Below, piece by piece: positions 17,343-51,268 of a stretch of DNA of 51,268 nucleotides. The stretch's first letter is position 1; each line of letters opens with the position of its first letter. Source of the stretch: a virus (taxonomy: Duplodnaviria > Caudoviricetes); the IMG/VR virus record IMGVR_UViG_3300022751_000238, positions 1-51,268 of that record. One strand, written 5' to 3'. Made by a program: the position numbers and the translations under genes. The notes beneath the pieces were generated by a model. That model saw only the letters and a program-made list of their open reading frames with translations, was not told where the DNA came from and did no database searches.

Positions 17343-17377
17343 GTCCTTTCTCCCCTACCAGCCAAAGCCCAACTTCG
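17343..17377 (+). promoter_or_regulatory. late promoter copy 1
   Basis: GTCCTTT-N21-AACTTCG. Confidence 0.75.
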
Positions 17378-17394
17378 TAAAAACAATCAGCGAA

Positions 17395-17721
17395 GTGGCT
17401 AAACAAATAATCAAACGGAAAATAGCGATGGCATCGATCCGCTCGGATGATGCTACCGGCAGACCGACTGTTCATTCGATCAAATACCGAAAGAAGGATG
17501 GCACAGTCGGCTATAAAAAACGTGTGACCAAAAGTTTCCGCCTTCTCCCTGGCTCAGGCAAATTCCGTGGCAATATCAATTTAGGCCACGAGTTCCAGTT
17601 CATCAACCTGGACGAACCTCCTGATTCAGACAAATATCATTTCAGAATAAAAATTGACAATCTCATCGAAGTAGATGGGATGGTAATTGATCACACCAAC
17701 GGCGAAAACAAACAATGGTAA
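17395..17721 (+). CDS. small basic protein preceding portal
   Basis: GTG start right after promoter 1; beta-rich 'SIKYRKKDG' SH3-like pattern. Confidence 0.65.
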   Translation: MAKQIIKRKIAMASIRSDDATGRPTVHSIKYRKKDGTVGYKKRVTKSFRLLPGSGKFRGNINLGHEFQFINLDEPPDSDKYHFRIKIDNLIEVDGMVIDHTNGENKQW

Positions 17722-18989
17722 CCCAACTCTCCCCTACACTCTTCATGCTTAATGAAGGTAGCAACAATGGTGCTATCCTTCAACTTACCGGATCTCGCGA
17801 CGCCAGTTTTGGCGGTGGATTTTGGTCAGACCGTTACGACCACCTCGATCACGTCCGCTGGGGCGCAGGCGACAACCAGCCGAACGTGATGCGCAAGGCG
17901 ATCGAAAAAAACACCACCGTGCAGTCGCTTCTCGAATCGCTTCGTGATATGATCTACGCTTCAGGCGTTGGATTCTTCACAAAGCAGATGGTTGATGGCA
18001 AACCTCAAATTACAGAGTACACTGATCCGAAGCTCGAAGAATGGAGCTGGGCGACCGATTTGCAGGATTACGTCATCACTGCCATTAATCAGCGTGTGGA
18101 TAATGCCAACATTTTCACCAAATGGCGTTACGATCCTTTGCAGGACTGGTTTACGCTTTCGGTACTGGATTCCTTTAAAACGCGGATCGGAAAAGCAGGC
18201 GGCTTTCACGTCAACCCCTACTTTGGTTTTGCCAATTTTCAATCACTGGCAGATACCGAAAAACTAAAACCCTTCAACAGGCTGGACCGGGAGTTCAACA
18301 TCAAAAACACTGTTACCGCTTCCCACTCGAAAACGAACATCCCCGGCCAGCCCTTTTATTCTTTCGCCTCCTGGTGGTGCGCAGAAGAAGCGATCGAGCT
18401 TGCAAACCTGATCACGGCCTTTCACAAAAATGGAATTCTGAACGGCTACAACATCAAGTATCTGATCCGGATGCCTTCGGATCACTTCGACCGCGACGGT
18501 ACAAGGTCAGTCGACAGCAAAGAATCCAAGGCGCGTTGGAGCAAGTTTTCCGATAATCTTTCGGGCTGGCTCGCCGGTCAGAAGAACGTCAACAAGACGA
18601 TGCTGATCAAATACCTGCGCGGAAGTGATGGTAAAATGATGGACAATGTCGACGTGCAGCCACTGAAAAACGAAATGTCTGACGATGCCTATGACAAGGT
18701 TTGGAAAAAGTCTGACCAGAACATCGCCAATTCGGTCGGTATCCTGCCGACGCTTGCCGGTGTAAACCCAGGCTCAGGTAATGACTCGGGATCACAGATC
18801 AGGGTCATGGCCGAATACCAGCAGCACTTCCGAACACCGATCCACCGCCACGCCGTGCTGAAAGACATTAATACCGCGCTGCGCATGATGGGCTACAAAG
18901 ATGTATTCGCAGGCTTCAAAGAAGTTCAACTCACCACCCTTGATAAAAATCCTACCGGCAGCGAGGCTGTTGTAAACCACTCTATATAA
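17715..18989 (+). CDS. phage portal protein
   Basis: 424 aa; 'WGAGDNQP', 'PFYS..SW', 'HKNGILNG', 'GQKNVNK', 'SGSQIR' pattern of PBSX/Bacteroidota-type portals. Confidence 0.8.
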   Translation: MVTQLSPTLFMLNEGSNNGAILQLTGSRDASFGGGFWSDRYDHLDHVRWGAGDNQPNVMRKAIEKNTTVQSLLESLRDMIYASGVGFFTKQMVDGKPQITEYTDPKLEEWSWATDLQDYVITAINQRVDNANIFTKWRYDPLQDWFTLSVLDSFKTRIGKAGGFHVNPYFGFANFQSLADTEKLKPFNRLDREFNIKNTVTASHSKTNIPGQPFYSFASWWCAEEAIELANLITAFHKNGILNGYNIKYLIRMPSDHFDRDGTRSVDSKESKARWSKFSDNLSGWLAGQKNVNKTMLIKYLRGSDGKMMDNVDVQPLKNEMSDDAYDKVWKKSDQNIANSVGILPTLAGVNPGSGNDSGSQIRVMAEYQQHFRTPIHRHAVLKDINTALRMMGYKDVFAGFKEVQLTTLDKNPTGSEAVVNHSI

Positions 18990-19972
18990 TGATTGTCAAT
19001 TCAGAAATTTTTAAAGCCCAGCTCGGAGGCATTCAGAGCAAAATAAATTTCAACACGGTTGAAACCTTCATTATATCAGCAGAACGCAATTTTAGAAAAA
19101 TCGTAGGTAAAGAGCTTTACGATTTCCTGAACGAAATCGATTTCAGTGCTCCGGAGCCTGGAACTGATCCGATCGTACTGAAAGAGCTTCTGGAAATATC
19201 CCAGGGGTGTATTAGCTGGGCGGCTTATGACCTGGCTTTACCGCACCTTAAAATCCGTGTCGGCGATCTGGGTTTAGTCAAAAATTCAGCCAATCAGACC
19301 GTAGCGGTCACCAAATGGGAGTACGTCGATACCCGCGAAGCAAACCTTGCGATGCAGGACATCATGTGGGAATTCTTCTGGGAAACGATCGAAGAATTGC
19401 AACCCGATGTATGGACAGCCTCCGAGGCTTACAAAGAAAGAAACCAGTATTTTCTGCGATCGGCAGACGAGCTTACAAAATACATCGCCCTGGTAGGAAG
19501 AAACAGAAGACTTTTTGCGCAGCTCGAACAGTTTATTCGCCGCGCAGAACAGGTTTATATTTCCGATGCTGTCACCTCCGGAGTTTTCGACCGGCTCAAA
19601 ATGCGCTGGATGGATAAGGATACACAGCTGACACCGGTGGAGCTGATGCTCGTCGAGAAGATCCGCGAAGCACTGGCGTATCTGACCCTTCATGAAGCTT
19701 ATCCATATCTGCCGATCAAGATCGATGAAAACGGTGTCAGGGAAGCGCGCAAATGGGACGGAACCTCAAATGAAAACCCCGCAGATCCTAAGTTTAAAAA
19801 CGCCCAAAGAAACCAGCTCTGGCAGGATGCCCAGCTGTACATGGGACGTTTGAAAACCTTTATGGACAGCTACTCCACCGCCGATCAATTCCCTGAGTAC
19901 TTCACCGCCAATCTGAGCGGGCCTGAACAGGAAGACGAAGACTTTACCTATAAATCCCACGTTTTAATTTAA
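18989..19972 (+). CDS. DUF6712-like head-completion protein
   Basis: Two-fold internal helical repeat ('FI..AE......G..L'), directly after portal. Confidence 0.6.
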   Translation: MIVNSEIFKAQLGGIQSKINFNTVETFIISAERNFRKIVGKELYDFLNEIDFSAPEPGTDPIVLKELLEISQGCISWAAYDLALPHLKIRVGDLGLVKNSANQTVAVTKWEYVDTREANLAMQDIMWEFFWETIEELQPDVWTASEAYKERNQYFLRSADELTKYIALVGRNRRLFAQLEQFIRRAEQVYISDAVTSGVFDRLKMRWMDKDTQLTPVELMLVEKIREALAYLTLHEAYPYLPIKIDENGVREARKWDGTSNENPADPKFKNAQRNQLWQDAQLYMGRLKTFMDSYSTADQFPEYFTANLSGPEQEDEDFTYKSHVLI

Positions 19973-19982
19973 CCCATCCTCT

Positions 19983-22567: not shown

Positions 22568-22602
22568 GTCCTTCCAAAGGATGAAATCCCAGGCAAACTT
22601 GT
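22568..22602 (+). promoter_or_regulatory. late promoter copy 2 (lysis module)
   Basis: GTCCTTC-N21-AACTTGT. Confidence 0.65.
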
Positions 22603-22636
22603 GTTCCGAAACGAAAATCATACCAAATCAAAATCT

Positions 22637-25538: not shown

Positions 25539-27386
25539 TTACTTTTTACCGTATTTTCTAAATGCGAAAATGAACTGATATATAAAATAAGCACTGAGAA
25601 TCCTACCGACGAAGTCCCAGAACCGAGATGCATAAGTTATTTTCAATTTGACGACTTCTGGGATATAATCAGCTTTGTGAATTGGAAAGAGGAATTCGGG
25701 AAACAATGACAGAATTTCTTTAAAATTATCTATTTGTTCCTCATTCGGCTTATAAATAATTAGCCCATAACCAAGTGAAATATTATGGATAATATAGACA
25801 ACACTCATCACAAACATTAATAGCCATAGTGCCCGCCACCAATCTGTACCAAAGTTATTAGAGTATTTATTTGTAAATAAAGTAGCATAATCGCGGAATT
25901 CTGCCCACGTCTTTTTTCTTGTTAATTGATTTAAAGACTCGTAGTGAGCGTTAAGTTCCAAGGCTAAATATTCGTTACTTTTGACAGAGTCACCGCGACT
26001 TTCATAAACCTTTTTCAGTTGAGCGTATCCAATCTGAATATCTCTAAAATCACCTTGCAATGTAGCTGGCATATCAGTACCAGCAAGGAAAATCTCACTA
26101 ATCTTCGATGCTTTTATTTCCATCGACATTTCTGAAAAGTTACAGGAAATGAAATTTATCTTACCCAAATCAGAGTTCAAAAGTTTAAAGTCTGACTCTT
26201 GTGTTTCCAGCTGATCAATTGATATTTTGTGACTTTTCAACAAATCAAAATACTCCGACGATAATACAGAAACTAAGGACTTGGTAATTCGTGGTTGATA
26301 CTCTATCCCCGAAATGTAAACATTAGAATTATTATTAAATGAAGCAAAATTAATAGACGAAACCGTAAATCCTTCCAATACAATTGTAGGCTTATCCTTG
26401 TCAGCACCCTGCTGGAATGTCCCATTGATTAAACTCAGCTTATTAATATGCAGTGGATGCTCGCTAACACCAGTCACATTCAAAGTATTAAACTTCGCGA
26501 GTTTGATTGGAAGGATAAGGTGATCAATTGTAGCCTCCGAAATAACAATCTCATTAATACTAACTGCTCCAAAAGCCAAATGCCCAATATTGCATCCATT
26601 TTCAATGATAACCTTACCTTTTGATCCACTTTTTTGAAATTCTAAACTTTCCACTGTTATCTTACTAATGTTGACATCACCAAAATTGGAATTTATTATA
26701 ATTTCTTTAAATATTGAATCACTAAGGTTCAGCTGATGCAAAGACTCAAAGTTTAAGATTGGTATACTGCAAGAGTCAGTTGTAGTAAAGTCAATGACCT
26801 TTGAAATATTTGATTTATTAAGAATGGTTCGTTTTAAATCCAAATATTGAGCATAAGTTATGTCAAGTTCGTCTACAGTTACATTTTTCATTCTTATATA
26901 CTGTCCTGATTCTACCGCAATTTTAGCAATGCTAAAATCTTCATTCGATTCATCCTGTTCAATTACCAAGTCTAGTAATTGCCCATTTCCGTCTATTTCT
27001 ATACTGCCGATATGTAAACTGTTTTGAGCTATTATTTTGGTTGCCATCCTATACATGTTGCTATCGTTAGGAGGCAAAAAATTATTTAAAATCCTGTTGA
27101 TGTAGCAATTCACGAATTTAATGGAGGCTTTAGTATTGTCATGCTCCCATTTCTCAATAATTTTTATAATAACATCGGATTCAAAATGACAATCGATAAA
27201 CTCGATATTCACCCAACTAACCAGCGCAAAAACAACAATCTTATCATCAAATCGGATTTTTTTTGCTTTCACCGTCGAAGTTTGATTATCAATCGTGATC
27301 TGTGCTTCATAATCGAAATTTTGCGTATCCTGAATGTTCGATAAAAAGTGATTCCATTGATCCTGAGATAAGATATATCTGTTCAT
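25539..27386 (-). CDS. beta-helix (pentapeptide-like) repeat protein with C-terminal membrane domain
   Basis: Long I/L/F-spaced repeats, 'YAQLK..Y', 'SNNFGTDWWRAL', TM-loop-TM ending AFRKYGKK; ATG 27386 preferred because the longer track start overlaps promoter 3. Confidence 0.75.
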   Translation of the reverse strand: MNRYILSQDQWNHFLSNIQDTQNFDYEAQITIDNQTSTVKAKKIRFDDKIVVFALVSWVNIEFIDCHFESDVIIKIIEKWEHDNTKASIKFVNCYINRILNNFLPPNDSNMYRMATKIIAQNSLHIGSIEIDGNGQLLDLVIEQDESNEDFSIAKIAVESGQYIRMKNVTVDELDITYAQYLDLKRTILNKSNISKVIDFTTTDSCSIPILNFESLHQLNLSDSIFKEIIINSNFGDVNISKITVESLEFQKSGSKGKVIIENGCNIGHLAFGAVSINEIVISEATIDHLILPIKLAKFNTLNVTGVSEHPLHINKLSLINGTFQQGADKDKPTIVLEGFTVSSINFASFNNNSNVYISGIEYQPRITKSLVSVLSSEYFDLLKSHKISIDQLETQESDFKLLNSDLGKINFISCNFSEMSMEIKASKISEIFLAGTDMPATLQGDFRDIQIGYAQLKKVYESRGDSVKSNEYLALELNAHYESLNQLTRKKTWAEFRDYATLFTNKYSNNFGTDWWRALWLLMFVMSVVYIIHNISLGYGLIIYKPNEEQIDNFKEILSLFPEFLFPIHKADYIPEVVKLKITYASRFWDFVGRILSAYFIYQFIFAFRKYGKK

Positions 27387-27401
27387 TTTTAAGTGGTTTA
27401 A

Positions 27402-27436
27402 GTCCTTCCAAGGTAGTAACTTATTATTCACTTTTG
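27402..27436 (+). promoter_or_regulatory. late promoter copy 3
   Basis: GTCCTTC-N21-ACTTTTG. Confidence 0.7.
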
Positions 27437-27453
27437 GAGAAAAATCATCTTCT

Positions 27454-29481
27454 ATGATTGATGCCATAGCCACTGACCAGTCTTACCTGCCGCTAAAATT
27501 TAGCCGTAATAAGCTTACCCATACCATTGAGGCCGCTGATCCTGCCCTTACCAGCAGGGTCGGCCTGAAATATTACCTTCAAATTCAGGTTCCTGAATTT
27601 CCCTTCTCTGAAAACTTTGAAGAACTGCACACCTCCGAAGGCCGCGAGACACCGGTAAACAACCAGTCTGGCGTTCAGGTTTTTTCCGGTGCCGAGTTCC
27701 GGTTCAACTCCGGACGTAACGGCAAAATTGACGGGCTTCTCTCCTACACCAAGCCACGACAAAAGCAAAAACAAATGAGTGTTTCGCTTTCGCAGACCAT
27801 GGCCTTTCGACTGAAAGAGCAGATCGTGGGCGGCGTCCCTGCCGTCGATATTACAAACGAGCTACCCAAAATGTACGCGATCAAGGCCGGTCTTGCCAAC
27901 GAAGATTTTTACGCTTACGGTGATTCGTTCTGGAAAAACTGGCAGATCGGGCAAAGGCAATTTTTGACATGGCAGCCCAACTACAAAAGTATTTTTGAGG
28001 ATCAGGAAGAATATTTGCAATTCGTTTTGAATTTTACGCCAAAGCCGCAGGTGCTCAAACTGCGTTATCAATCCTACGATAATGACGGTGTCAGCTCGGA
28101 TGCTATCACAGCGATGTCCCTGGCTAATCCTTTGCTGTATTCGGTGATCACCTGCCCCGTGGGTATGGAAGCACTCGCCATTCCTGCCGATGCAGCCAGG
28201 TACGACGTGTGGTTAAGTAATGAACAGGACAAACGCGTAAGCGAAGTCCGTAGCTTCTTTGTTGATCATTCCCATGAAGAGTTTGATCGAAGCATCCTTT
28301 TTGTTAATTCCCTGGGCGGATGGGATACGCTGCGTCTTACCGGTCAGGCGCAAAGAAGCCTTAAAGTAGTGCAGTCGACTGCCGAAATCGAACGGCCAGC
28401 AGATGCCGGCGTCGATTTCTCGGAGCTGAAAATTATCAGCATCGAGGGTGAGTACGATTTCCAGATCAGCACCGGCTACCTAAAACGTGATGCAATCAAT
28501 TATTTGCGCTACCTGGACGAGCTGCTTCTTTCGGAGGAAGTATACCTGATCACCGACAAAGGGCATAGGCCGCTTCAACTCACCACGACGGCGATGGTCG
28601 ATCAGGCGGACAATCAGGATTTGATTGCACGCACGTTCAATTTCAGGATTTTGGACACCGTCGAAAATTACTCGGATTTACCAGCTGCTGAACCTACCGA
28701 ACCGCGCGCTACGACATGGCGCGGTGTGAACCTTCGTCAGGTACTTGACGGCTACGGAAAGCGAACCGGTTTTTTGGCGTTTGAGCGTCTTGAAAAGGTG
28801 TATCTGGACAATAACAGCACCGTAAAACCTTACGCTGTAAAGGCCAATACTCAGGGAGATCCGGATTATATCGAACCGGTTCTGGATAGCACGATCGAGG
28901 CCGGATCAACGCCATTTCCTAACGTGGCCATTTCGCGGCTTGGAACATTTAAACGGGATAACTGTGCTTCGACACACTTGGGCGGACCGGCAACAATAAC
29001 GGTACCGGCCGGAACCTACGGCGGAGAAAAAGAAGGTGATGCCGATGCACTTGCCGAAGGCAGATATAACAGCCTGAATACGCAGAGCTATGCGAATACG
29101 TCTGGAACTTGTACACTCAATAATGTTCCGATCAAGCTTGGTATACGGCATTTCTTCCCGATGAACCTTCAAAACCAGATAATTGGATCGCCCGATTTTG
29201 GACCTGTTGTAAACCTTCGGATATCCGGACAGGAGATCATTCCTAACTCTGTGGGTTCAAATCCTACGACCACACGTTTATCAGAACAGGTTTACGAGCC
29301 AGGTATCTACAATTTTATTTTACAAGTGAATTATGGCGGCTATCCGAGACGACCATGTAAACTTAAACTACCGACGAAAAACCGCGAAGTAACTGTTAAC
29401 GAAGCAGGTTATTTCATGTTCGACAATGTCGTCGTAAATAGTTCAGATGCCCCACTAATCTTTGAAGTAACTCCTGTATGA
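27454..29481 (+). CDS. tail tip protein with DUF5977-like domain
   Basis: 'FVNSLGGWDT', 'LLLSEEVYL' distal-tail motifs; 'FKRDNC...G....TVPAGTY...ADALA...YAN..GTC' DUF5977-like module. Confidence 0.7.
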   Translation: MIDAIATDQSYLPLKFSRNKLTHTIEAADPALTSRVGLKYYLQIQVPEFPFSENFEELHTSEGRETPVNNQSGVQVFSGAEFRFNSGRNGKIDGLLSYTKPRQKQKQMSVSLSQTMAFRLKEQIVGGVPAVDITNELPKMYAIKAGLANEDFYAYGDSFWKNWQIGQRQFLTWQPNYKSIFEDQEEYLQFVLNFTPKPQVLKLRYQSYDNDGVSSDAITAMSLANPLLYSVITCPVGMEALAIPADAARYDVWLSNEQDKRVSEVRSFFVDHSHEEFDRSILFVNSLGGWDTLRLTGQAQRSLKVVQSTAEIERPADAGVDFSELKIISIEGEYDFQISTGYLKRDAINYLRYLDELLLSEEVYLITDKGHRPLQLTTTAMVDQADNQDLIARTFNFRILDTVENYSDLPAAEPTEPRATTWRGVNLRQVLDGYGKRTGFLAFERLEKVYLDNNSTVKPYAVKANTQGDPDYIEPVLDSTIEAGSTPFPNVAISRLGTFKRDNCASTHLGGPATITVPAGTYGGEKEGDADALAEGRYNSLNTQSYANTSGTCTLNNVPIKLGIRHFFPMNLQNQIIGSPDFGPVVNLRISGQEIIPNSVGSNPTTTRLSEQVYEPGIYNFILQVNYGGYPRRPCKLKLPTKNREVTVNEAGYFMFDNVVVNSSDAPLIFEVTPV

Positions 29482-31912: not shown

Positions 31913-32371
31913 ATGATCTATAAAAGTCCATTAAAGGTTGATGAGCCAGGAGCTCAGCTTCCAGACTTTACAAAATACAGAATAGGTAATGCTATTTATT
32001 ACCATGTAAGTCCAATTACTGGTAGCTCCAATCCTAAGCGATACGTAGGTAAAATTATTGAAATTCATGAAGATCAAGACCCTAAGTTCGTAACCTTCAC
32101 TCTTACACCTCTTGATCCAAAGTATCTAAATCCGGAATTTTATGAAATAGTAATTGAGGATATACGCCTTACAAAAGACGTATTAGATGCACTAAAAATC
32201 CCATCTTCACAACTAGATTTAATTCCTGAAGATCTCAGACCAAATCATTTACACACATTTCAAAACATCTGTGAATTTGAAACTGGTCAACTGATACCTT
32301 TAGATGGACTTACTACTTGGTCAGAGTATCCAGGAGTCGACCTCCATCATATTTCAAATAAAGATAATTGA
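31913..32371 (+). CDS. hypothetical protein (accessory)
   Basis: 'RIGN...IRLT...HLHTFQN...TG' pattern common in Bacteroidota phage small proteins; AT-rich. Confidence 0.55.
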   Translation: MIYKSPLKVDEPGAQLPDFTKYRIGNAIYYHVSPITGSSNPKRYVGKIIEIHEDQDPKFVTFTLTPLDPKYLNPEFYEIVIEDIRLTKDVLDALKIPSSQLDLIPEDLRPNHLHTFQNICEFETGQLIPLDGLTTWSEYPGVDLHHISNKDN

Positions 32372-32378
32372 TTAAGAC

Positions 32379-32418
32379 AAAAGTGGAAGTTGGAGTCAGT
32401 TCTATCTTCCACTTTTTT
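32379..32418 (+). terminator. intrinsic terminator
   Basis: aaaagtggaag...cttccactttttt. Confidence 0.65.
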
Positions 32419-32458
32419 ACTAATTCTCCGAGATTTAAATCGAAATTCATACGTTTTC

Positions 32459-32493
32459 GTCCTTTCTACTGCTGCTTAACCACCGCAACTTAG
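32459..32493 (+). promoter_or_regulatory. late promoter copy 4
   Basis: GTCCTTT-N21-AACTTAG. Confidence 0.75.
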
Positions 32494-32519
32494 CTATCGT
32501 AAAATAATGCGATAGCTAA

Positions 32520-33149: not shown

Positions 33150-33158
33150 CCCTCAAAA

Positions 33159-36100: not shown

Positions 36101-37340
36101 TGCTAAAACGGAGGATGAAAGGCAAGCGATTGAAGCCAAAATCCAAATGGCGAAAAAAGAAAGTGAAGAGAAAATCAGGGTCGCTGAACAGGAACTGGAA
36201 GCGAAAAAGACTAATCTTTCTGAGTTACAGAATTTCACTACAGAGGTAACTAATGAAGCACTCGCCGAAGCAAATAAAGCTTCGGAAAAACAGATCACTA
36301 TCGCCAGCGACGAAGCAGAGCAAAAGGCAGATTTCAAAGCAGATCTGGAAGAAACGATCGCCGCTGAAAACCGTAAGGCGCGCGCTGTTGAGCAGGCCGA
36401 AAAAACCAAAGCCTTCAAGGCACAGAAAAAAGCTGATATCGCAACGGCACTTATAACGGGGGCATTGGCCGTACTGAAAGCACTCGCTAACTTTTTCCCG
36501 CTGAATATCATCCTGGCCGCTACGGCTGCGGTGGTAACCGGTGTTCAAATAGCCAAGATCAAAAACCAACCAGATCCTGTTTTCGCCCTGGGCGGAATCT
36601 CACCAAATCCAAGCTTCGCTGATGGCGGAACTTTGGGACATGTACCACAAGGTGGTAAACACGGAATCAGTTACGGAACCGGAGGAATCCAGCTTCTCGA
36701 CCGCGCCACTGGCCGCGATGTCGGAGAAATGGAAGGCGGCGAAGCGATTATTTCCACCAAGCAGACTGAGGCCAATTGGCCGCTTATTCAGCAAATGTTT
36801 AAAAATGCCAGAACGCCTGGTAAAACCAACACGCCGGTGATCCCGCATCCAGCGACTCCCATGGCCTTCCGTGACGGCGGAAAGTTCGAAAGCCCATACT
36901 TCGAAAGAGGGATGTATCTGTTTGGTTCCAAAAAACGTAAAGCCGAGCAAGCGGCCAAAGATGCCGAAGCCGAAGCGGCCAGAGCACAGGCGGAAGCCGA
37001 CGCGGCCATGGCGGACATGCCAAGCTTTGACAGCGGTGCGTATGGCGGCATCGACAGCAGTGATCCATCCGCCAGCGGAGATACGGCCGGCGCAGCTGCG
37101 CAGCATGAGGAAGCCAGAAAAATGGGTAAAGATCAGCTTCAAGCTATTCTGGATATTTTACAGGAAACCAAAGCTAACGGTGATGCACTTGGACGTGTAG
37201 TTTCAATCGTCGGTGATCTGAAAGGTTCTGTCAACGGAGTTGAAGGCGCGGTTAACAGTGTCCGTGATGCAGTATACAATACAAACACCCAGGGCAAGTT
37301 TGATCAGTTAATTGGTGCTATCAGCAGCATGAGTGCATAA
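33159..37340 (+). CDS. tape measure protein
   Basis: 1393 aa; coiled coils, tape-measure domain ('GEFERLKEFG'), amphipathic repeats, C-terminal FAxGG and 'EMEGGE' motifs. Confidence 0.92.
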   Translation: MNGDVIEVDVRSNSKQLQDDLTKAKDRAKELRKELADIEKTSGKGSDEWKKYKAELKETQEQAAKLTKELRNMDVTKMTFSQLKTYVNDLNKELKNMVPGSAQATAQLKKIGEAEAQFKKVSDQAKKIKDEAADLGQPGLWGKITSGVKSIGTAFQAIIALQIIQWMVDIGKAVFTTTATFEKYEKVLTTALGGQKEAKAAMEAIKKMAKETSFGVDELTEGYVKMVNRGLRPSQSEMTKMADLAASQGKTFDMLIEGILDAQTGEFERLKEFGVKARKEGDNVSLTFNKQTQTVKNNEEAIYQAIIAMGAMTGVAGQNAIMMETLGGKASNFGDVMDSLKTAIGDRLSPIFKFFLDLLADGIEWLVKVINASDPLIQVFEDIFSGVGQLASSFINIFSNVFPKFNASGLTLATVMQGIAVVFRAVLTPIQIFIGGLTMVYDAISGVVQGGKALVQFLAGDFSGAAKTFENSKTNFSNISKHATESYEKIKSGWTDAFVTQPKKDSVEAAFAAGTSETKKQDSISEAQKKAAAKQAEQKQKAEGKINEMIAQLDAEHNQLTADNAIKTEEFKIEEKRRKRLKEITDSIADEKTKEAARIAVNRNADAEIIALREKDNKKALELLSQMESEHSVKTAKTALEAEEAKIAEIQRKRLADIEVSKADETVKTQLIEAINRNAEASLDKVRGEYRQKRIKEQEEADRKLLEQGNFLRDQEQKAEMTLFDWQITQARGNADRIAQIKKDRVDAELRFTQQKLEAEMMAEGQKAISLIQNDEQLAVALNQIEDRHHVASVAASKKASDDKLAIDKDLHEKKAANLKAYSDMFGSLLADDVSGFLQSAQTMVKGHQEAWQQKLSADMASYQQGGEMAMQAVAFLNNLAQKKAEKAIAEANRERDEKVAILTNELSVTESMVKTSSDYVTALKSAETERLAELQRILTSETTTEEQKRDALKKYYSDQLQQMKAAEEAKIQDLQRLANLAKTEDERQAIEAKIQMAKKESEEKIRVAEQELEAKKTNLSELQNFTTEVTNEALAEANKASEKQITIASDEAEQKADFKADLEETIAAENRKARAVEQAEKTKAFKAQKKADIATALITGALAVLKALANFFPLNIILAATAAVVTGVQIAKIKNQPDPVFALGGISPNPSFADGGTLGHVPQGGKHGISYGTGGIQLLDRATGRDVGEMEGGEAIISTKQTEANWPLIQQMFKNARTPGKTNTPVIPHPATPMAFRDGGKFESPYFERGMYLFGSKKRKAEQAAKDAEAEAARAQAEADAAMADMPSFDSGAYGGIDSSDPSASGDTAGAAAQHEEARKMGKDQLQAILDILQETKANGDALGRVVSIVGDLKGSVNGVEGAVNSVRDAVYNTNTQGKFDQLIGAISSMSA

Positions 37341-37414
37341 ATAGCGATTTTAACGATTTTTTAATAATGGTCTTTTTTCGGTATATTGTCAACATTAATT
37401 TACTCCACGTAAAC

Positions 37415-37906
37415 ATGGTAAAAACTATTGTGGTAACACTCCCACCGCATGTAAAAAAATTCTTTCAAACTGAGTACGATGGTTATCAAAGAAAAAACGG
37501 AATGGATGAACTCCACGTTGATAAACACTCTGAACTTGGCAAATTAATTCATCTTATTTCCCGACCGATTCTGCACACCCAAAAGGTGGCAAACAAGAAA
37601 AGCCCGGGCGCATTATCGATCCGTTATTACTCTCACGTGCAAAGTATGGAGGTGCCGGTTGACAAACTTGGTATGCTTGCTTTGTACATGGAAGAAATTT
37701 TCAGACGGACGATGGTTGCCGAAGTTCGGGGTGGTCAGGAGCTAGTCGGCGGCGACTATGGCCCGCTGGTGACAATGTCTTTGCAACGCCGGGGAATCGA
37801 GCGTGACGTGGATGTGGATTACCAGACCTGCCGGAAAATTTACCGCGATCACGTGAGTAAAATAAAGCGGCGGTCGAGCAAACTTTTTGAAAAAAGTTAT
37901 GCGTAA
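37415..37906 (+). CDS. putative transcription regulator (candidate late activator)
   Basis: N-terminal 'IVVTLPPHVKKF', C-terminal helical basic 'DVDYQTCRKIYRDH'; non-structural-looking gene inside the late region. Confidence 0.45.
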   Translation: MVKTIVVTLPPHVKKFFQTEYDGYQRKNGMDELHVDKHSELGKLIHLISRPILHTQKVANKKSPGALSIRYYSHVQSMEVPVDKLGMLALYMEEIFRRTMVAEVRGGQELVGGDYGPLVTMSLQRRGIERDVDVDYQTCRKIYRDHVSKIKRRSSKLFEKSYA

Positions 37907-37971
37907 AAAGTAACGGAAATGCGCAAAAAGTAACGAAAATGCGTAATCCGTAACGAAGATGCGTAAAAAGT
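37899..37971. repeat. 20-bp tandem repeat, ~3.6 copies
   Basis: atgcgtaaaaagtaacggaa / atgcgcaaaaagtaacgaaa / atgcgtaatccgtaacgaag / atgcgtaaaaagt. Confidence 0.9.
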
Positions 37972-37988
37972 CCACCTGTTTTTATGAT

Positions 37989-38023
37989 AAAAACCGTCTA
38001 TACTATCAGTACAGGCGGTTTTT
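37989..38023 (+). terminator. intrinsic terminator
   Basis: aaaaaccgtctatact-atc-agtacaggcggttttt. Confidence 0.65.
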
Positions 38024-38057
38024 CATTTCAATTCATTGTCAAAAACCGTGTTTTTTC

Positions 38058-38093
38058 GTCCTTTCAAACGGGCTATTTTAAGCGGAAATTTCG
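38058..38093 (+). promoter_or_regulatory. late promoter copy 5
   Basis: GTCCTTT-N22-AATTTCG. Confidence 0.7.
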
Positions 38094-38096
38094 GGC

Positions 38097-38648
38097 ATGT
38101 TAGGTGCCCTCGAAAAAATTGGCGAACCGTGCCAGTCTCCCTTCAATGCCGGATTTCTCACGCATCTGTACGCGATACAGACGCAGAATCTTGTTTATGT
38201 CCATTCCCCTGGTGCTGATTCCGTTTCGCAGCCATTAAGCGCGATCGGAATTCAGCCGGGTTCAATCATCACAGAATTTCTGATCCGCACAAAAACCGCG
38301 ACGTTTTCTGAAACCATGGCCGAAAGTGCCGATGGCATCGCCTTTCAGACCTCGCTCGCTTTTCCGATGAAAGGAACGGCTGTGGAGCTAACGAACTGGA
38401 TTCACAAAAACCGCAGACGCCGTTACATCCTTTTGATGCGTGATACGCTTGGAAACTGCTACATGATGGGAAGCTATGACAACGGCGCACGTGTAAGCTG
38501 GAACCGTCAGGTCACTTCGCAAAGCCTGCATCAGCTTGCCTTCAATCTTGTCAATTGGCACCCGATACAGTTTTTACCCTCCATTGACCTGGAAAAGATA
38601 TTCCCACACCGGGAATTTGATTACAGCTTTGATTTATCCTTCTCATAA
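38097..38648 (+). CDS. virion protein (head-closure or tail-tube-like fold)
   Basis: beta-rich, 'RD..GN.Y..GS'; C-terminal FDYSFDLSF motif; precedes the tail fibre. Confidence 0.5.
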   Translation: MLGALEKIGEPCQSPFNAGFLTHLYAIQTQNLVYVHSPGADSVSQPLSAIGIQPGSIITEFLIRTKTATFSETMAESADGIAFQTSLAFPMKGTAVELTNWIHKNRRRRYILLMRDTLGNCYMMGSYDNGARVSWNRQVTSQSLHQLAFNLVNWHPIQFLPSIDLEKIFPHREFDYSFDLSFS

Positions 38649-38671
38649 CATTTCTAATTTACTCAAACTTC

Positions 38672-41600
38672 ATGGCCTGGAATTACGACGACGAAGAAAT
38701 CTACGGAATAATTGACGCAAATCTCAAAGATTCACCTCCCAACCCACCAGCGGTAAATACCGCTCCAACTGTCCGAGCACTTTTGAAATCCTACTGGTCT
38801 GCAATACGTGGACAGGTTTCCGGTGCGCTAGGTTCTACTGATTTATTATTAGAAGATGTGCAAACAAAAATTGACACTGCGTTTGCAAAAAGCGAATTGA
38901 TTTATGAACAGTTTTCATTAGCAAGTGGAATTGGTACTTATAATGCGACAACGGGAATTGCTACGATAACAGAAACTGGTGCAACTTTCACGCCATCTGT
39001 TGTTGCAAATCAAGTGAATGGTAGGTATTTCGACATTGTTGTTGCCGGAACAAAGTCAGTTACCGGAACACCCGTTGCTATGGAAATCGGCGGTGTTCTA
39101 ATCAGTCGGGGTACTAAATGGGATTACATTCCGAAGGGTACACTTCTTATTGATCCTAGAAAAAGTCCAAATTTAATTCTATCAGCTAACAGCACGCCGG
39201 AAAACTGGCTACTTGTTGGATCATCCACAGATACACAGCCTTTAATTGTAGTTCAAACACAGCCCGCTGTAATCACACTTCAAAAGGGTGTAAAGGGTCT
39301 CGGCTTTATGTATAAGGCGGTTATGCAGCCAAATTCAAGAGTGAATTATTTTTCTAACAAAATAAGTCTGGACGCTCTTCCAGTTGGGGAAAAAGTTCAT
39401 CTAGGGTATTTTAGATACCTTTCAGCAGGAACGGTTTTGAGTGCAAGTACTGTGCATAAACTGTGGCCTTTACCTGAGAATATTGACGCAAATATTACAA
39501 TGGAAACCATTGATTTGGGTGGTGGTCTTCAATATGTGCGCTCTGTTAGTCCAATAACGGTTCCGTCTTATACATCACGGTGCGAAATTAGAATCTATTT
39601 CTATGCGGCACCTGGAAGCGTTGTTGATGGTGAAATGTGGTTTGGCTCCCCGTCCCTGATTAAAACGTCAATCGCACTGGCTCCTTTGATGTACGTTGGT
39701 GGAGAAGATTTATCAAGCGTGCCAAGCCCAATGACAAGTCAAAATCTTGTTTCGTTTGCTAATTTTAGCCCAGATCAATGGATTTTAAATACAAGTGCGT
39801 CCAGTATTGGAGATAAACCCATACTATACAGGCAATCCGGGACAGTATCTTTAATTTCTTCGGTTAAAAAATTTAAACAATTCTCATTTGCGGTAAAGGT
39901 TGCGGGCATTCAATTAAATTCCAGAGTTAATTTTGTTTCTCAGATAATTAAAACAAATGAAACGATCGCGCCAGGCACAATGGTTTCATTTGGATTTTTC
40001 CTGAACGTAGATACAGGCGTTGATATATCACAAGTGGTTTGCCAAATTGTGGATGCAACAAATTTATCTGTGGGACTTATAGCCATCACAACAGAGTTCG
40101 TTAATTTAGGTAACGGTCTGCGTTATTATCGAAGTACTATTCCTGTTTCAATGCCTTCGTATGCAAGTAATCAAGCGGCGGTAGTTGCTTACATTTATAC
40201 GGGTGCTGCATCTGTTACGGGTGATATTTACTTGGCATCTCCATCGCTGGTAAAGAGCCCTCAAAAATTACAGCCTCAAAATTACTTGGGAATGGAAGAT
40301 GCCCAGTCGGATACGAGTGGGTTGCAATCCCAAATAACGGCCAATGCTTCTGATATTACCCAGGCAAATAGTAATTTATCATTAGCAAATACAAGACTAA
40401 GAAATAATTCTATTTCAGACGCTGGATTTTTAACTCAGTCAATCGGCGCTCAGTCTCTTACCTTTCCCTGGGGGTTAGGAGGGCTTGGCTCAAACTATCA
40501 AGCTCCTTTTGTTTTTGAGTTAACGCCTGATGGGCCAGCCGGCACAAGGTGTTTAAAGCAAACGCACTCAAAAAGATCGTCCGATGGTTTGCTTTCGATT
40601 TGTACAATCCATCAAACTGTGACCATCCCAGAGGATTGCAAAGGTATGTCTAAGTTCTCTTATGGATTTTGGGCGAAAAGAGATTCGCTTATGGTTAAGC
40701 CGGTTTCTTTTACCCTTACATTTTATCCAAACATAGGAGATACCACAGGATCTACAACGTCCAGCCCGGCACTTCCAGCTATGGGAGTAGCTTTGAATAC
40801 ATGGGTGTACTTGAAATTTGAAAATATAAGCGTTCCGGCTGGTACTTCGCGCATAAATATAAGGTCTGCTTTTATAGCAGATGCAGCATCTGCTGTCGAC
40901 GTAACTTGCAACCTCTGGATGCAAACATTTGAAGTTGCATTTAATTCGTCTGTGGCGAATGCAACCAATCAGAATTTTAAAATTGCACCCATTGATTACT
41001 TCAATCTTAGAGGTTTGAAATTTTGCATTTATGGAAATTCCATTGTTGCAGCTAACGTCACTACCACAAATACCCTTCTTAATGAAGCTCGTGCAATCAG
41101 TGATAGATTTCTGATGACTGTCTATGTGCGAGGAGTTGGAGGTACACGTGTTGTTGATAATAATTCAATTGCTTGGTTCGATGGTACAGGTCTATATTTG
41201 GCACGACCAGACAATGGCGGAACTCAACCGGTGGGATCATTCGAATGGAAGTCGTCTATGAGTAGCTTAGAACGTATAAACAACACTATCCCAGCTGATA
41301 CAGATATTATCCTTATACGGGGTTTAACAAATGATTATCTAAATTATCCTCTTGGAACGATTGATAGCCCGCACGACAATAATACGATCTACGGTGCATA
41401 TCAACTGATGTTAGATAGAATGTACGCACGTATTCCAAATGCTATTTTTATTCTTGCAACTCCGACACATCGAAATGGAGAAGATACTGACGTAGGCGTA
41501 GGGGCAATGGCTGGGCTTAAATTTGAGCAGGTTCGTGATGCGGTCAGAGTGATAGCAAAAAAGTACAAATATCATTTGTGCGACATGTCGGAATCTGGGA

Positions 41601-41716
41601 TCAATCAGCTAAATCATGCAACTTATTTATCTGACGGAATTCACCCTAATAGTGCAGGATACGCAAGAACGGGCGCAGTAATATTCAAGACGTTAAAAAC
41701 ACTGATCCAGTCTTGA
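38672..41716 (+). CDS. tail fibre/spike with tandem carbohydrate-binding-like domains and SGNH hydrolase
   Basis: Duplicated ~190-aa domain (NSRVN.., G.GL.Y.RS..P...PSY, SPSL.K), coiled coil, then YGNSI / G / GLTND / DGIHP SGNH blocks. Confidence 0.78.
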   Translation: MAWNYDDEEIYGIIDANLKDSPPNPPAVNTAPTVRALLKSYWSAIRGQVSGALGSTDLLLEDVQTKIDTAFAKSELIYEQFSLASGIGTYNATTGIATITETGATFTPSVVANQVNGRYFDIVVAGTKSVTGTPVAMEIGGVLISRGTKWDYIPKGTLLIDPRKSPNLILSANSTPENWLLVGSSTDTQPLIVVQTQPAVITLQKGVKGLGFMYKAVMQPNSRVNYFSNKISLDALPVGEKVHLGYFRYLSAGTVLSASTVHKLWPLPENIDANITMETIDLGGGLQYVRSVSPITVPSYTSRCEIRIYFYAAPGSVVDGEMWFGSPSLIKTSIALAPLMYVGGEDLSSVPSPMTSQNLVSFANFSPDQWILNTSASSIGDKPILYRQSGTVSLISSVKKFKQFSFAVKVAGIQLNSRVNFVSQIIKTNETIAPGTMVSFGFFLNVDTGVDISQVVCQIVDATNLSVGLIAITTEFVNLGNGLRYYRSTIPVSMPSYASNQAAVVAYIYTGAASVTGDIYLASPSLVKSPQKLQPQNYLGMEDAQSDTSGLQSQITANASDITQANSNLSLANTRLRNNSISDAGFLTQSIGAQSLTFPWGLGGLGSNYQAPFVFELTPDGPAGTRCLKQTHSKRSSDGLLSICTIHQTVTIPEDCKGMSKFSYGFWAKRDSLMVKPVSFTLTFYPNIGDTTGSTTSSPALPAMGVALNTWVYLKFENISVPAGTSRINIRSAFIADAASAVDVTCNLWMQTFEVAFNSSVANATNQNFKIAPIDYFNLRGLKFCIYGNSIVAANVTTTNTLLNEARAISDRFLMTVYVRGVGGTRVVDNNSIAWFDGTGLYLARPDNGGTQPVGSFEWKSSMSSLERINNTIPADTDIILIRGLTNDYLNYPLGTIDSPHDNNTIYGAYQLMLDRMYARIPNAIFILATPTHRNGEDTDVGVGAMAGLKFEQVRDAVRVIAKKYKYHLCDMSESGINQLNHATYLSDGIHPNSAGYARTGAVIFKTLKTLIQS

Positions 41717-41745
41717 TACTTACCTTAAACATTACCCTGTTATTC

Positions 41746-41780
41746 GTCCTTTAACCACTCCAAATTAAGCTTCTACTTCG
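41746..41780 (+). promoter_or_regulatory. late promoter copy 6 (head operon)
   Basis: GTCCTTT-N21-TACTTCG. Confidence 0.75.
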
Positions 41781-41816
41781 TATCCTCTTAATACCCAAAC
41801 GAACCCGGTACGAACT

Positions 41817-42665
41817 TTGAACGCGGAAACCTTCTCTGGATTATGGTACATGAATAAACCCTTCGCCCGCCGAATGGAAGGAATTATCCTTCCCCGGTTG
41901 GCGCAAGGTTTTGACCCAATCCCCTCCCACTTTAAACACGAAGCCGCAATTTCTCCACTCGATAAGGATGGTGATTACAGCCGGACACGAATTTACTTAA
42001 ATGACTACCTGAAACGTGGTGATGGCGATGTTGCTGTGATCCCGATGGAAGGCACGATGTCCCGAAACGGATTCTGCGGCATGGGTAACGAATTCATGAT
42101 CGATGTGCTGGCAGAAGCAGCTGCTGAAAAAGCAGTCAAAGCCGTCGTGCTGAAAGGGAACACACCTGGTGGCACCGTTGATTCCATCGAGATTTTTGCA
42201 GACGCTATCAAATCATTTCCAAAGCCGATAGTAGGCTATGTCGCTGGAAGCGTTGCCAGTGCCGGCGTATTTGCCATGAGCCAAACGGACGTGACGGTAA
42301 TGGAAAAATCCAGTGCTGCCGCTTATGGAAGTATTGGCGTACTGATGGTGCATATCGATCAAAGCCAGGCTCTGGAAAAAGCAGGGCTTGTTGTTAGGAT
42401 CTTCCGCGCTGGTGAATCGATCGACAAAGCTACTGTAAACGGCATTGAGCCGCTTACCGCGGAACTGGAAGCAGAAATCCAGATGGATCTTGACGAAGCG
42501 ATGACACTTTTTAAAGGTTACGTCAAACGTGGCCGCGCCGGAAAGCTTACTTCCGACGATGTCTTCACAGGTAAAATGTACAACTATAAAGACGCCATCA
42601 ATTACGGTCTGGTGGACCGTACCGGTGGTCTTGGCGATGCAATCCGGATCGCCCGAGCGATGTAA
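41817..42665 (+). CDS. S49 (SppA-like) prohead protease
   Basis: 'TPGGTV', 'KPIV', 'ASAG', 'GSIGV', 'GLVD' motifs. Confidence 0.88.
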   Translation: MNAETFSGLWYMNKPFARRMEGIILPRLAQGFDPIPSHFKHEAAISPLDKDGDYSRTRIYLNDYLKRGDGDVAVIPMEGTMSRNGFCGMGNEFMIDVLAEAAAEKAVKAVVLKGNTPGGTVDSIEIFADAIKSFPKPIVGYVAGSVASAGVFAMSQTDVTVMEKSSAAAYGSIGVLMVHIDQSQALEKAGLVVRIFRAGESIDKATVNGIEPLTAELEAEIQMDLDEAMTLFKGYVKRGRAGKLTSDDVFTGKMYNYKDAINYGLVDRTGGLGDAIRIARAM

Positions 42666-48204: not shown

Positions 48205-48246
48205 AAGACCCCCGTCCCCCCCCTACCCCATATCGAAAAATGCCCC

Positions 48247-48282
48247 GCCCCCCTCAAGGTCTGCCCTCGAGGGGGGCTTTCA
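48247..48282 (+). terminator. GC-rich hairpin after terL
   Basis: gcccccctc-N13-gaggggggc followed by tttc. Confidence 0.5.
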
Positions 48283-48472
48283 TATATTCGGAAAATTTTT
48301 TTTTGGAAATTTCCAAAATGTCAAAGGGCGGGCTTGATCTGCCGACTTTTCACCTAAAAAAACAGATTTAAATTTTTTGTGATTGATTTTCAGCCGGTTG
48401 GCTCTGGATGTTGCAAGGAAAAGGTGCAACTTTTTATAAAGATACAAAATTCTATTGATATACAGCCATTTA

Positions 48473-48507
48473 GTCCTTTCTGATGCGTCCAAATCGCACT
48501 CTTTTTG
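48473..48507 (+). promoter_or_regulatory. late promoter copy 7
   Basis: GTCCTTT-N21-CTTTTTG. Confidence 0.65.
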
Positions 48508-48526
48508 TCAAAAAACAATTAGAGAC

Positions 48527-48982: not shown

Positions 48983-49052
48983 ACCAGAATTCTTTCGTAT
49001 GAAAAAGAAAGCAATAAAGCTCTATATTTACGCTTCTGAAAAATTAAGAAGT

Positions 49053-49786: not shown

Positions 49787-49795
49787 TTTTATCTA

Positions 49796-50101
49796 TCAAA
49801 AAACTTTTGAATTAATAACATTCGCAATTACCCAATGCTTCATCTTATTGGCTAGGTAGGTCTTTTGTCTGGATTCTTCCGGAGACTCCAAATAACGTTT
49901 ATGTTCAACAATAAACGCGCGGTCAATGATAAGAAATTCTTTATCTGCATTATCAGCCATGTATTGATCTCTTTCTTCCAAAGAATCAAAGCGTTTAATT
50001 TCGGCGATAAATGATGGCTCCTGAGTGTGTACTATATAAGCAGCTCCTGGCGAAGCTGCTTCATTCTTTGCAATTAAAAACTTAGGTACATTCTTCTTCA
50101 T
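49796..50101 (-). CDS. hypothetical protein
   Basis: 'PKFLIA.N...YIVHT..P.FI' pattern; ATG 50101 overlaps the upstream gene end. Confidence 0.65.
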   Translation of the reverse strand: MKKNVPKFLIAKNEAASPGAAYIVHTQEPSFIAEIKRFDSLEERDQYMADNADKEFLIIDRAFIVEHKRYLESPEESRQKTYLANKMKHWVIANVINSKVF

Positions 50102-50336
50102 CGATCCTCGATCTGGCGTATAAAATAAAGCTGACTTTATCGCGAGGATCGATTGGAGATTGAATAATATAAAGCTCTCTGAAACCATTATATTCTACCA
50201 AATAATGCGGTATGAACAATGACTCCCTGATGTAAGCAGGTACATTTCTTTTCTTCCAACGCTCACCTTTGGTAGCGATAGAGGCAAAGTGCTTACTCCC
50301 AAGCTCCTTGCCGGATTTGATAGCATTTTCTTCCAT
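50082..50336 (-). CDS. hypothetical protein
   Basis: Preceded on the minus strand by the exact -7 box TATATTTG (50384-50377). Confidence 0.6.
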   Translation of the reverse strand: MEENAIKSGKELGSKHFASIATKGERWKKRNVPAYIRESLFIPHYLVEYNGFRELYIIQSPIDPRDKVSFILYARSRIDEEECT

Positions 50337-50407
50337 GATTTTCTGTCGTTTTTTAGTTGCTGAGCCTGCAACGTTTCAAATATAAGTCATTTTTTTGACG
50401 CTTTTGC

Positions 50408-50442
50408 GTCCTTTTTTTGACGCTCGGATTTCCCTCCTTTTG
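50408..50442 (+). promoter_or_regulatory. late promoter copy 8
   Basis: GTCCTTT-N21-CCTTTTG. Confidence 0.7.
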
Positions 50443-50464
50443 CTGGCTAACCAATTAATTAGCC

Positions 50465-51268
50465 ATGAAAACTGAAATTCATTTAAAAACTCCAATCGGA
50501 TATTACGGAGGAAAACAGAAAATGTTACCTCATATTCTGCCGAAAATCCCTGAGCACAAATCCTACATAGAGCCATTTTTCGGAGGTGGAGCCGTCTTCT
50601 TCGGAAAGAAGCCCAGCAAATTCGAAGTTGTAAACGACATAAACCATCGTTTAATAACCTTCTACAAAGTCTTAAAATATGATTTTGATGAAATTCAGAA
50701 CCTCATTGACGAGACTTTTCACTCGCGAGCGCAACATAAGGAATCCGATTTGCTTTACATTTCACAAATGGATTTGGTATCTAACCCGGTCGGCTGCGCC
50801 TGGGCAGTGTGGACACAAACAAATATGGGCTTCTCAAAGATGATGGGCAAAGGTTTCGGCTACGATCGCAAAGGCTCAGCTGCTCTCAGCAATTTTAATC
50901 GAAAGAACAATTTTACTATTCAACTTAAGGATCGTTTTAAACGAGTAACAATTGAAAGCTACGACGTACTAAAGGTTATTAAAGCATACGACAGCCCTGA
51001 CGCTTTTTTTTATCTCGATCCGCCTTACGTAAGCTCTGATCAGGGACACTACGCTGGCTACACACTAGATAATTTCAGGCAGTTACTTGATGCCTGTGTA
51101 AATATGAAAGGTAAATTTTTACTCAGCAGTTATCCGGAGCAGATCCTTTTAGAATACAGGGAAAAATATGTCTGGAAGTGCGAGGATCACCAGAAGAAGT
51201 TAGCCGTTGATGGTAGAAGAAAGGGAGCCAGGACAAAAACAGAATGCTTAACCTGGAATTACTCATAA
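50465..51268 (+). CDS. D12-class DNA adenine methyltransferase
   Basis: PIGYYGGKQ, EPFFGGG, VVND, LDPPY, ECLTWNY. Confidence 0.9.
   Translation: MKTEIHLKTPIGYYGGKQKMLPHILPKIPEHKSYIEPFFGGGAVFFGKKPSKFEVVNDINHRLITFYKVLKYDFDEIQNLIDETFHSRAQHKESDLLYISQMDLVSNPVGCAWAVWTQTNMGFSKMMGKGFGYDRKGSAALSNFNRKNNFTIQLKDRFKRVTIESYDVLKVIKAYDSPDAFFYLDPPYVSSDQGHYAGYTLDNFRQLLDACVNMKGKFLLSSYPEQILLEYREKYVWKCEDHQKKLAVDGRRKGARTKTECLTWNYS

Follow-up and report, generated by a model that had tools for sequence, protein, structure and literature searches.

Promoter boxes complementary to start codons suggest a translational lock in a lineage of Bacteroidota proviruses

Why would the promoters of a temperate phage be complementary to the start codons of the genes behind them? 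The question is raised by IMGVR_UViG_3300022751_000238, a 51,268-nucleotide (nt) viral record classed as a provirus and analyzed here over its whole length (the window), in which eight promoter-like sites stand before the first genes of operons. A first-pass annotation had reported inverted repeats at six of these eight sites, each with its 5′ arm on or beside the −7 box and its 3′ arm at the start of the following gene. It had proposed that RNA arriving from upstream folds and hides the start codon, and that RNA begun at the promoter itself lacks much of the 5′ arm and stays open. The observation was confirmed and the interpretation was partly supported. We consider that the best reading, and probably the right one, is a lock in the phage's operon-first genes of the type known from genes e, soc, and I-TevI of phage T4, with the transcription start sites (TSSs) predicted from promoter geometry.

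The eight sites share a two-block motif, GTCCTT[T/C] and, beyond a 20-nt spacer, an 8-mer with the pattern nAnnTTnG. All lie on the plus strand, are intergenic, and sit just 5′ of an operon-first gene; six carry exact GTCCTTT and two the variant GTCCTTC (Table 1). Related proviruses, down to ∼50% terminase identity, have the same motif and spacing before orthologous genes: the site 1 motif recurs 5′ of the orthologues in the related records L024, L025, and L027, the site 2 promoter is kept 5′ of 7 orthologues, and the site 4 promoter is kept before the protease gene in 10 relatives. Following the published Bacteroidota geometry, we placed the predicted +1 39 nt after the first G of GTCCTTT, which sets this block at −39 to −33 and the nAnnTTnG box at −12 to −5. 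In Flavobacterium promoters, the box carries T-12, A-11, T-8, T-7, T-6, and G-5, with the start site 4 to 5 nt further on (PMC6847099, excerpt), and a second study also places the −7 box at −12 to −5 (PMC9723704, excerpt).

Compared with the Bacteroidota primary-sigma promoter (−33 TTTG/−7 TAnnTTTG), the phage 8-mer fits positions −12 to −5 with T-8, T-7, and G-5 mostly retained, and the T-rich block likewise ends at −33 with fixed spacing. Unlike the −33 TTTG, however, the phage block is the longer GTCCTTT, which is strongly conserved and continues with c, t, or a, with no G after the TTT; T-6 is often C, and TA at −12/−11 is retained mainly in a leaderless group described below. Sigma-70 region 2 and region 4 domains were not detected in the five provirus records searched, and GTCCTTT is likely read by the RNA polymerase of the host, perhaps helped by a phage activator bound at the GTCC extension. 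General sigma-70 and terminator consensus scans found the window no richer in matches than shuffled sequence.

All six inverted repeats were located at the places first reported, and minimum-energy structures were obtained for them. In silico, the minimum-energy hairpins cover or abut the start codons, and their 5′ arms span −15 to +4 of the predicted TSS. The predicted difference between long and truncated RNAs was also recovered: the long RNAs fold over the start region and those cut at the predicted TSS do not. At the five claimed sites that have a leader, opening positions −9 to +5 of the start codon costs 5.3 to 15.9 kcal/mol in RNAs extended 79 nt upstream, against 0.3 to 3.3 kcal/mol after truncation at the TSS (12.0 versus 2.9 kcal/mol at site 1 and 15.9 versus 3.3 kcal/mol at site 2); the truncated window RNAs as a whole range from 0.3 to 3.9 kcal/mol. 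Leaders cut at the predicted TSS have z scores of −1.42 to +0.81, none being structured beyond shuffles. Across 32 instances, 12 reached p ≤0.05 in the opening-energy test against 100 shuffles of the upstream part.

When whole segments were folded, the expectation that the stems would exceed shuffled controls held for half of them. Against 200 dinucleotide shuffles per site, only hairpin 1 (minimum free energy, −11.0; z, −4.49; 0/200 shuffles as stable), hairpin 2 (−18.0; −4.76; 0/200), and hairpin 6 (z, −3.29; 3/200) individually beat the controls, whereas inverted repeat 3 (−1.24; 25/200), hairpin 4 (+0.01; 91/200), and hairpin 5 (−1.25; 21/200) did not. The two promoters for which no repeat had been claimed gave z scores of −0.21 (site 7; 63/200) and +0.06 (site 8; 101/200). 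We also applied a targeted duplex test, in which the 20 nt from −17 to +3 were paired with the start region (reaching at most 14 nt upstream and 8 nt downstream of the start codon's first base) and compared with 1,000 shuffles of the start region; the leaderless group was tested apart. All five leadered sites of the original claim fell at p ≤0.05 (0.001, 0.002, 0.010, 0.046, and 0.007 for sites 1, 2, 4, 5, and 6), and both unclaimed promoters lay above that threshold (0.176 for site 7 and 0.994 for site 8).

Two of the start codons involved are not ATG, and both are backed by relatives. The GTG at 17395 recurs as GTG, with a conserved N terminus, in L024, and relatives have GTG or ATG where the window has TTG 41817, with synonymous substitutions beyond it. 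We rejected ATG 41850 as the protease start, since L001 and L002 have GTG at the position of TTG 41817 and synonymous changes follow it. The idea that the 3′ arm is the minus-strand −7 box of an antisense promoter was also rejected, there being no minus-strand GTCCTTT at the needed distance.

Single-protein scans of viral contigs and a first metagenome scan returned no relative; relatives were found through profile-based scans, and the sample comprised the window and 13 related provirus or metagenome records. The set for the targeted test held 35 leadered promoter instances in six orthologue groups, of which 22 reached p ≤0.05 and 13 reached p ≤0.01, counts in which the instances from related genomes are not independent. 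L009, which hardly differs from L008, was dropped from later tests, leaving 34 instances. Displaced partners served as controls: p ≤0.05 was reached by 2/34 with the spacer as 5′ partner, by 3/34 and 1/34 with two regions 5′ of the motif, and by 1/34 when the 3′ partner was taken from the coding sequence (+20 to +41). Starts of 22 window genes that lack the motif, tested at three pseudo-TSS distances, gave 3/22, 2/22, and 0/22. Host promoters in 360 kb of Dyadobacter chromosome, defined by motif prediction only, gave 1/22, 4/51, 9/89, and 2/37, with a median p of ∼0.5, and a first, stricter run gave 0/14. All controls behaved as null.

These results bear on the simplest alternative, that a T-rich −7 box pairs with an A-rich leader by chance or composition. 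Window sites 3, 4, and 5, no stronger than shuffles by whole-segment folding, would fit it. But shuffles that keep composition, controls displaced in position, gene starts without a promoter, and host promoters all gave null results, unlike the real pairs, and permutation within orthologue groups, described below, sets the real pairs apart again. We regard this explanation, already disfavored, as scarcely credible.

The position of the pairing was resolved by sliding a 10-nt window from −70 into the leader. The partner of the start region is a segment at about −8 to +3 around the predicted TSS, including conserved box positions, and the best 10-nt partner begins 6 to 13 nt 5′ of the predicted TSS in 21/34 instances. 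Among instances whose leaders measure ≥20 nt (n = 16), the duplex energy averages about −1 to −2.7 kcal/mol for windows starting at −40 to −11, peaks at −5.0 to −5.1 kcal/mol for 8-nt windows over offsets −7 to +2, and returns to −1.2 kcal/mol once a window first lies entirely within the transcript. The 5′ arm thus keeps its place relative to the TSS, and the 3′ arm follows the start codon, across leaders of 13 to 35 nt.

The same scan helps to weigh the possibility that the real TSS lies 5′ of the 5′ arm. Every transcript would then contain the hairpin, either as a constitutive repressor opened by some factor (an activator resembling Com of Mu mom, a helicase, or temperature) or as a stabilizing 5′ stem. 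The TSSs are predicted, and no phage sigma factor turned up in the five provirus records, so the geometry could differ from that of host promoters. Against this, the distance between the two blocks is constant, and the second block, at −12 to −5, agrees with the −7 consensus (PMC6847099, excerpt); the site 3 gene has its ATG at the predicted +1 in most orthologues, as detailed below; and the complementarity is centered at −8 to +3 over conserved box positions, whereas the 20-nt spacer 5′ of the box is not conserved. The 5′ arm lies mostly 5′ of the predicted +1, and a 5′-terminal stem would fit only if the TSS were ∼8 nt further upstream, against the box geometry. We consider an upstream TSS quite unlikely.

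If the pairing matters, its two arms should change together, and the first-pass annotation had held that structure is kept as arm sequences differ. The related proviruses bore this out. In a MAFFT alignment of eight site 2 leaders, the 3′ arms are out of register, since their distance to the ATG varies, and we compared cognate arm pairs with permuted pairs of orthologous sites (20,000 permutations). Summed over the cognate pairs, the energy is −342.5 kcal/mol, against −245.8 ± 13.4 kcal/mol for permuted pairs, and 0/20,000 permutations reach the observed value (p ∼5e-5). By group, the permutation p was 0.0002 for site 2, 0.0002 for site 4, 0.040 for site 1, 0.041 for site 7, and 0.196 for site 6.

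Individual orthologues illustrate the pattern. At site 2, the hairpin is present in 8/8 genomes with differing arms (L002, L016, L018, L019, L020, and L021), for example, GCCAACG/CGTTGGC in L002, TTGCCATTG/CAATGGCAA in L020, where the ATG falls within the 3′ arm, and TTGCGCCAT/ATGGCGCAA in L021. The relatives' versions of site 4 repeatedly show a TACGA-type 3′ arm that complements the TTCGTA box and lies at a shifting distance from the start codon, and L008 has an 18-pair hairpin in which the ATG is also paired (z, −7.03). The 12 folds of relatives' instances were chosen by eye and serve as illustrations, not as a sample. Site 7 orthologues gave targeted p values of 0.168 (L016), 0.131 (L017), and 0.011 (L020), and site 6 orthologues gave 0.002 (L007), 0.063 (L013), 0.124 (L002), 0.839 (L001), and 0.781 (L016).

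An inverted repeat could also work as DNA, either as the site of a dimeric regulator or as a cruciform modulating the promoter, and the 5′ arm does overlap the −7 box, where an operator would be expected. The variation just described speaks against this: the arms differ among sites and genomes, so there is no common protein site, and the distance between them ranges from 4 to ∼33 nt at orthologous sites, which is unfit for a dimer footprint but tolerable for an RNA loop. A DNA-level role is, in our view, very improbable.

Under the lock that we favor, each site would be a Bacteroidota-type promoter in which the segment from about −8 to +3 complements the start region of the first gene, 13 to 35 nt downstream. 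RNA begun further upstream, possibly reading through from host DNA, accessory genes, or the operon before, would carry both arms and form a hairpin burying the start codon. Initiation in Flavobacterium johnsoniae is tuned by the secondary structure of the initiation region (PMC6847099, excerpt). Since the host phylum does without Shine-Dalgarno (SD) pairing and initiation needs an unstructured region, the hairpin should block translation, and RNA begun at the operon's own promoter, having lost all or most of the 5′ arm, would remain open. The first gene of each operon would then be translated only from the transcript of its own promoter. What the sequences show is the motif and a complementarity that is fixed in position, conserved, and covarying; promoter function, the TSSs, RNA initiated upstream, and any effect on translation are inferred. 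Whether this lineage of temperate Bacteroidota phages has regulon-wide translational insulation built into its promoters, with the −7 box as an anti-start-codon strand, outside transcripts kept silent, and site 3 reaching the same end by leaderlessness, is a proposition to which we would give an even chance.

The hairpins might instead serve read-through RNA in some other way, by protecting the 3′ end of the upstream mRNA, by marking a processing point, or by causing pausing or termination, with occlusion of the start codon as a by-product. They do stand at operon boundaries, and the sequence evidence speaks for selection on pairing, not for its function. Yet the 3′ arms lead straight into the start codon and coding sequence, with no T run behind them; the terminator lists for the window include none of the six hairpins; and upstream of sites 2 and 3 there are separate hairpins of canonical terminator-like form, with T runs. 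The double anchoring of the 3′ arm to the start codon and of the 5′ arm to the TSS would be unneeded in a 3′-end stabilizer. RNase III substrates are usually longer than these stems of 6 to 12 pairs. We judge such a role to be unlikely.

Several observations weigh against the lock that we favor. Hairpins 4 and 5 are weak by folding energy, site 7 shows no significant lock in the window, and site 8 shows none. The site 6 pairing is found in 4/6 genomes at p ≤0.13, is absent from L001 and L016, and shows no covariation (p = 0.20). In L026 and L028, the site 1 gene abuts the preceding gene and lacks any promoter. A second, more distant member of this prophage family in the Dyadobacter genome (G006:C2:110001-150000; L047 and L048), with a protease 44% identical, has eight GTCCTT[T/C] promoter-like sites, two of them with an ATG at the predicted +1, but 0/6 of its leadered promoters reached p ≤0.05 (best values, 0.058 and 0.070). 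The relatedness of the instances and the motif-only definition of the host promoters, noted above, count on the same side, as does the site 3 hairpin (below). With respect to upstream read-through, sites 2 and 3 have the terminator-like hairpins mentioned above in front of them, and site 1 comes after genes on the opposite strand; a search of RNA runs for window positions 32301 to 42300 listed no match. Finally, all eight promoters share one motif, so that read-through between operons would coincide in time with the unlocked transcript, and a T4-style early/late rationale is not established; the lock may insulate operons from one another or from host or accessory-gene read-through.

Site 3 is where the proposal of a lock at six of eight promoters gave way: the targeted test upheld pairing at the five leadered sites, but at site 3 the repeat is not conserved and the gene looks leaderless. 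The ATG of the gene at 38097 lies at offset +39 from the first G of GTCCTTT in 9/11 orthologues and at +37 and +41 in the others (orthologue positions: L001, 7511; L002, 6552; L007, 550; L011, 1199; L013, 1595; L016, 15516; L018, 15569; L019, 15591). With its ATG thus fixed at the predicted +1, the gene probably yields a leaderless mRNA, and the group provides an internal calibration that agrees with the published geometry. TA at −12/−11 is found in 7/11 site 3 orthologues and is absent there in the window. A separate duplex test of the −7/TSS region against codons 3 to 11 gave p = 0.027 in the window but p ≤0.05 in only 2/12 instances, and the site 3 hairpin is window specific rather than conserved. 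Published values, in excerpt, make leaderless mRNAs a minority in Bacteroidota, at 5.5% in F. psychrophilum and with ∼3.7% of untranslated regions shorter than 10 nt in B. thetaiotaomicron; here, by comparison, the arrangement is kept for one gene across a phage lineage. The L016 orthologue (3353) of the gene at 24187 likewise has its ATG at the predicted +1.

The sequences flanking some of the promoters have features of their own. A 20-nt tandem repeat (37899 to 37971; 3.7 copies; unit, ATGCGTAAAAAGTAACGAAA) lies just past the stop of 37367..37906 and before the terminator-like hairpin and promoter of site 3; its last unit is kept in L001 and L002, and it may be a protein-binding array. At 17327 to 17342, a 6-pair hairpin (GGGATT..AATCCC) with a terminator-like score on both strands abuts the GTCCTTT of site 1 and may end the divergent minus-strand gene 15956..17272. 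GACG-containing direct repeats (50390 to 50430) flank the GTCCTTT of the methyltransferase promoter, with TTTTTGACGCT occurring twice in the window, and comparable repeats lie at ∼17990 to 18030 in L001 and ∼19080 to 19120 in L002; they may be an operator particular to the methyltransferase operon. The first TTTTTGACGCT copy also makes a small hairpin with the GTC of the site 6 box.

Proteins encoded within positions 1 to ∼9000 of the record carry sorting domains for type IX secretion, which is characteristic of Bacteroidota, and from 17.3 kb on almost all genes are on the plus strand, among them, besides those in Table 1, a holin-like protein and a DNA methyltransferase. The majority of phage proteins stay nameless after PHROGs and Pfam annotation. 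The nearest named relative is a prophage in Dyadobacter diqingensis (protease identity, 84%), whose strain YIM B04101 harbors the prophage of L001, and the closest large terminase subunit from a cultured phage, that of Polaribacter phage Leef_1, is 27% identical. Gene order varies: the methyltransferase operon is immediately 5′ of the site 2 operon in L016 and at the right end of the record in the window. In L001, other genes take the place of the one for a 1,014-amino-acid protein with a C-terminal GDSL lipase/acylhydrolase domain (38672 to 41716), probably a variable module of the tail or of host recognition. A 644-amino-acid open reading frame (ORF) on the minus strand (25539 to 27473), in a low-GC stretch (0.37) between two plus-strand operons, had no match in Pfam or PADLOC and is a possible accessory gene. 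PADLOC, run on six accessory ORFs, yielded a single weak match, that of a 277-amino-acid minus-strand ORF (15054 to 15887) to a TIR-type defense effector model (E = 1.7e-4).

Table 1. Coordinates of promoter-like sites, inverted repeats, and other features of the window (TSSs predicted; offsets relative to the predicted TSS)
Feature	Position	Strand	Details
Promoter site 1	17343..17382	+	−33-like GTCCTTT 17343-17349; −7-like CAACTTCG 17370-17377; predicted TSS 17382
Hairpin 1	17367..17399	+	5′ arm GCC..ACTTCGT 17367-17378 (−15 to −4); 3′ arm GCGAAGTGGC 17390-17399 over GTG 17395-17397
Promoter site 8	22568..22607	+	GTCCTTC 22568-22574; box AAACTTGT 22595-22602; predicted TSS 22607; first gene ATG 22637
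Promoter site 7	27402..27441	+	GTCCTTC 27402-27408; box CACTTTTG 27429-27436; predicted TSS 27441; first gene ATG 27454
Promoter site 2	32459..32498	+	GTCCTTT 32459-32465; box CAACTTAG 32486-32493; predicted TSS 32498
Hairpin 2	32490..32519	+	12 pairs; 5′ arm 32490-32501 (−8 to +4); 3′ arm 32508-32519, 1 nt short of ATG 32520
Promoter site 3	38058..38099	+	GTCCTTT 38058-38064; box GAAATTTC 38085-38092; predicted TSS = ATG 38097
Inverted repeat 3	38089..38115	+	5′ arm 38089-38098 holds A and T of ATG 38097; 3′ arm 38104-38115 in coding sequence
Promoter site 4	41746..41785	+	GTCCTTT 41746-41752; box CTACTTCG 41773-41780; predicted TSS 41785
Hairpin 4	41777..41814	+	8 pairs; TTCGTATC 41777-41784 (−8 to −1) with GGTACGAA 41807-41814; 22-nt loop; 2 nt before TTG 41817
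Promoter site 5	48473..48512	+	GTCCTTT 48473-48479; box TCTTTTTG 48500-48507; predicted TSS 48512
Hairpin 5	48499..48524	+	Interrupted stem of 4+4 pairs, 2 internal mismatches; arms 48499-48508 and 48515-48524; 2 nt before ATG 48527; no orthologue found among relatives for conservation
Promoter site 6	50408..50447	+	GTCCTTT 50408-50414; box TCCTTTTG 50435-50442; predicted TSS 50447
Hairpin 6	50438..50471	+	7 pairs, TGGCTAA 50444-50450 (−3 to +4) with TTAGCCA 50459-50465, including A of ATG 50465; outer UUUU/AAAA stem
tRNA-Trp	10234		
Head maturation protease gene	41817	+	
Large terminase gene	46711	+	

If the lock is real, a mechanism of a few T4-group genes would extend to an unrelated, uncultured lineage of Bacteroidota prophages, and start-codon occlusion would be at work in a phylum without SD pairing, as a general solution for gating translation there. 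It would also raise the question of what the lock guards against, given one motif for all promoters. A promoter box with a complementary start region would be a signature predicting both the TSS and the true start codon in phages, including uncultured ones, for which there are no RNA data; in this provirus, the paired signature backs one GTG and one TTG start. The design would also be a compact one for promoter-specific translation in Bacteroidota engineering.

The T4 precedent named in the first-pass annotation was borne out. In excerpts of two reviews (PMC3014915 and PMC2988022), the longer early or middle transcripts of T4 genes e (lysozyme), soc, 49, and I-TevI, and also of I-TevII/III, segB, and mobE of Aeromonas phage Aeh1, contain an inhibitory helix; the late promoter is embedded in the 5′ strand of that helix, and late transcripts are without that strand. 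For e, the effect is ∼100-fold and the arrangement is kept in related phages (same excerpts). The provirus sites resemble this group, so described, in that a predicted helix sequesters the initiation region, the predicted transcript from the gene's own promoter lacks the 5′ strand, and the arrangement is kept in relatives. Searches of an open-access library turned up no description of such a lock, whether from phages of Bacteroidota or from any others apart from the T4 group. The T4 effect is experimental, whereas the present case is known from sequence and folding, and the early/late contrast of T4 has one shared motif as its counterpart here. The arrangement also belongs to an unrelated phage lineage in another host phylum. 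With no SD to hide, the start codon and its flanks are buried instead, and the 5′ arm is the region of a host-type −7 box rather than the TATAAATA box read by gp55. Where T4 has a few scattered genes of this kind, the provirus has the arrangement at most operon-first genes of its morphogenesis region.

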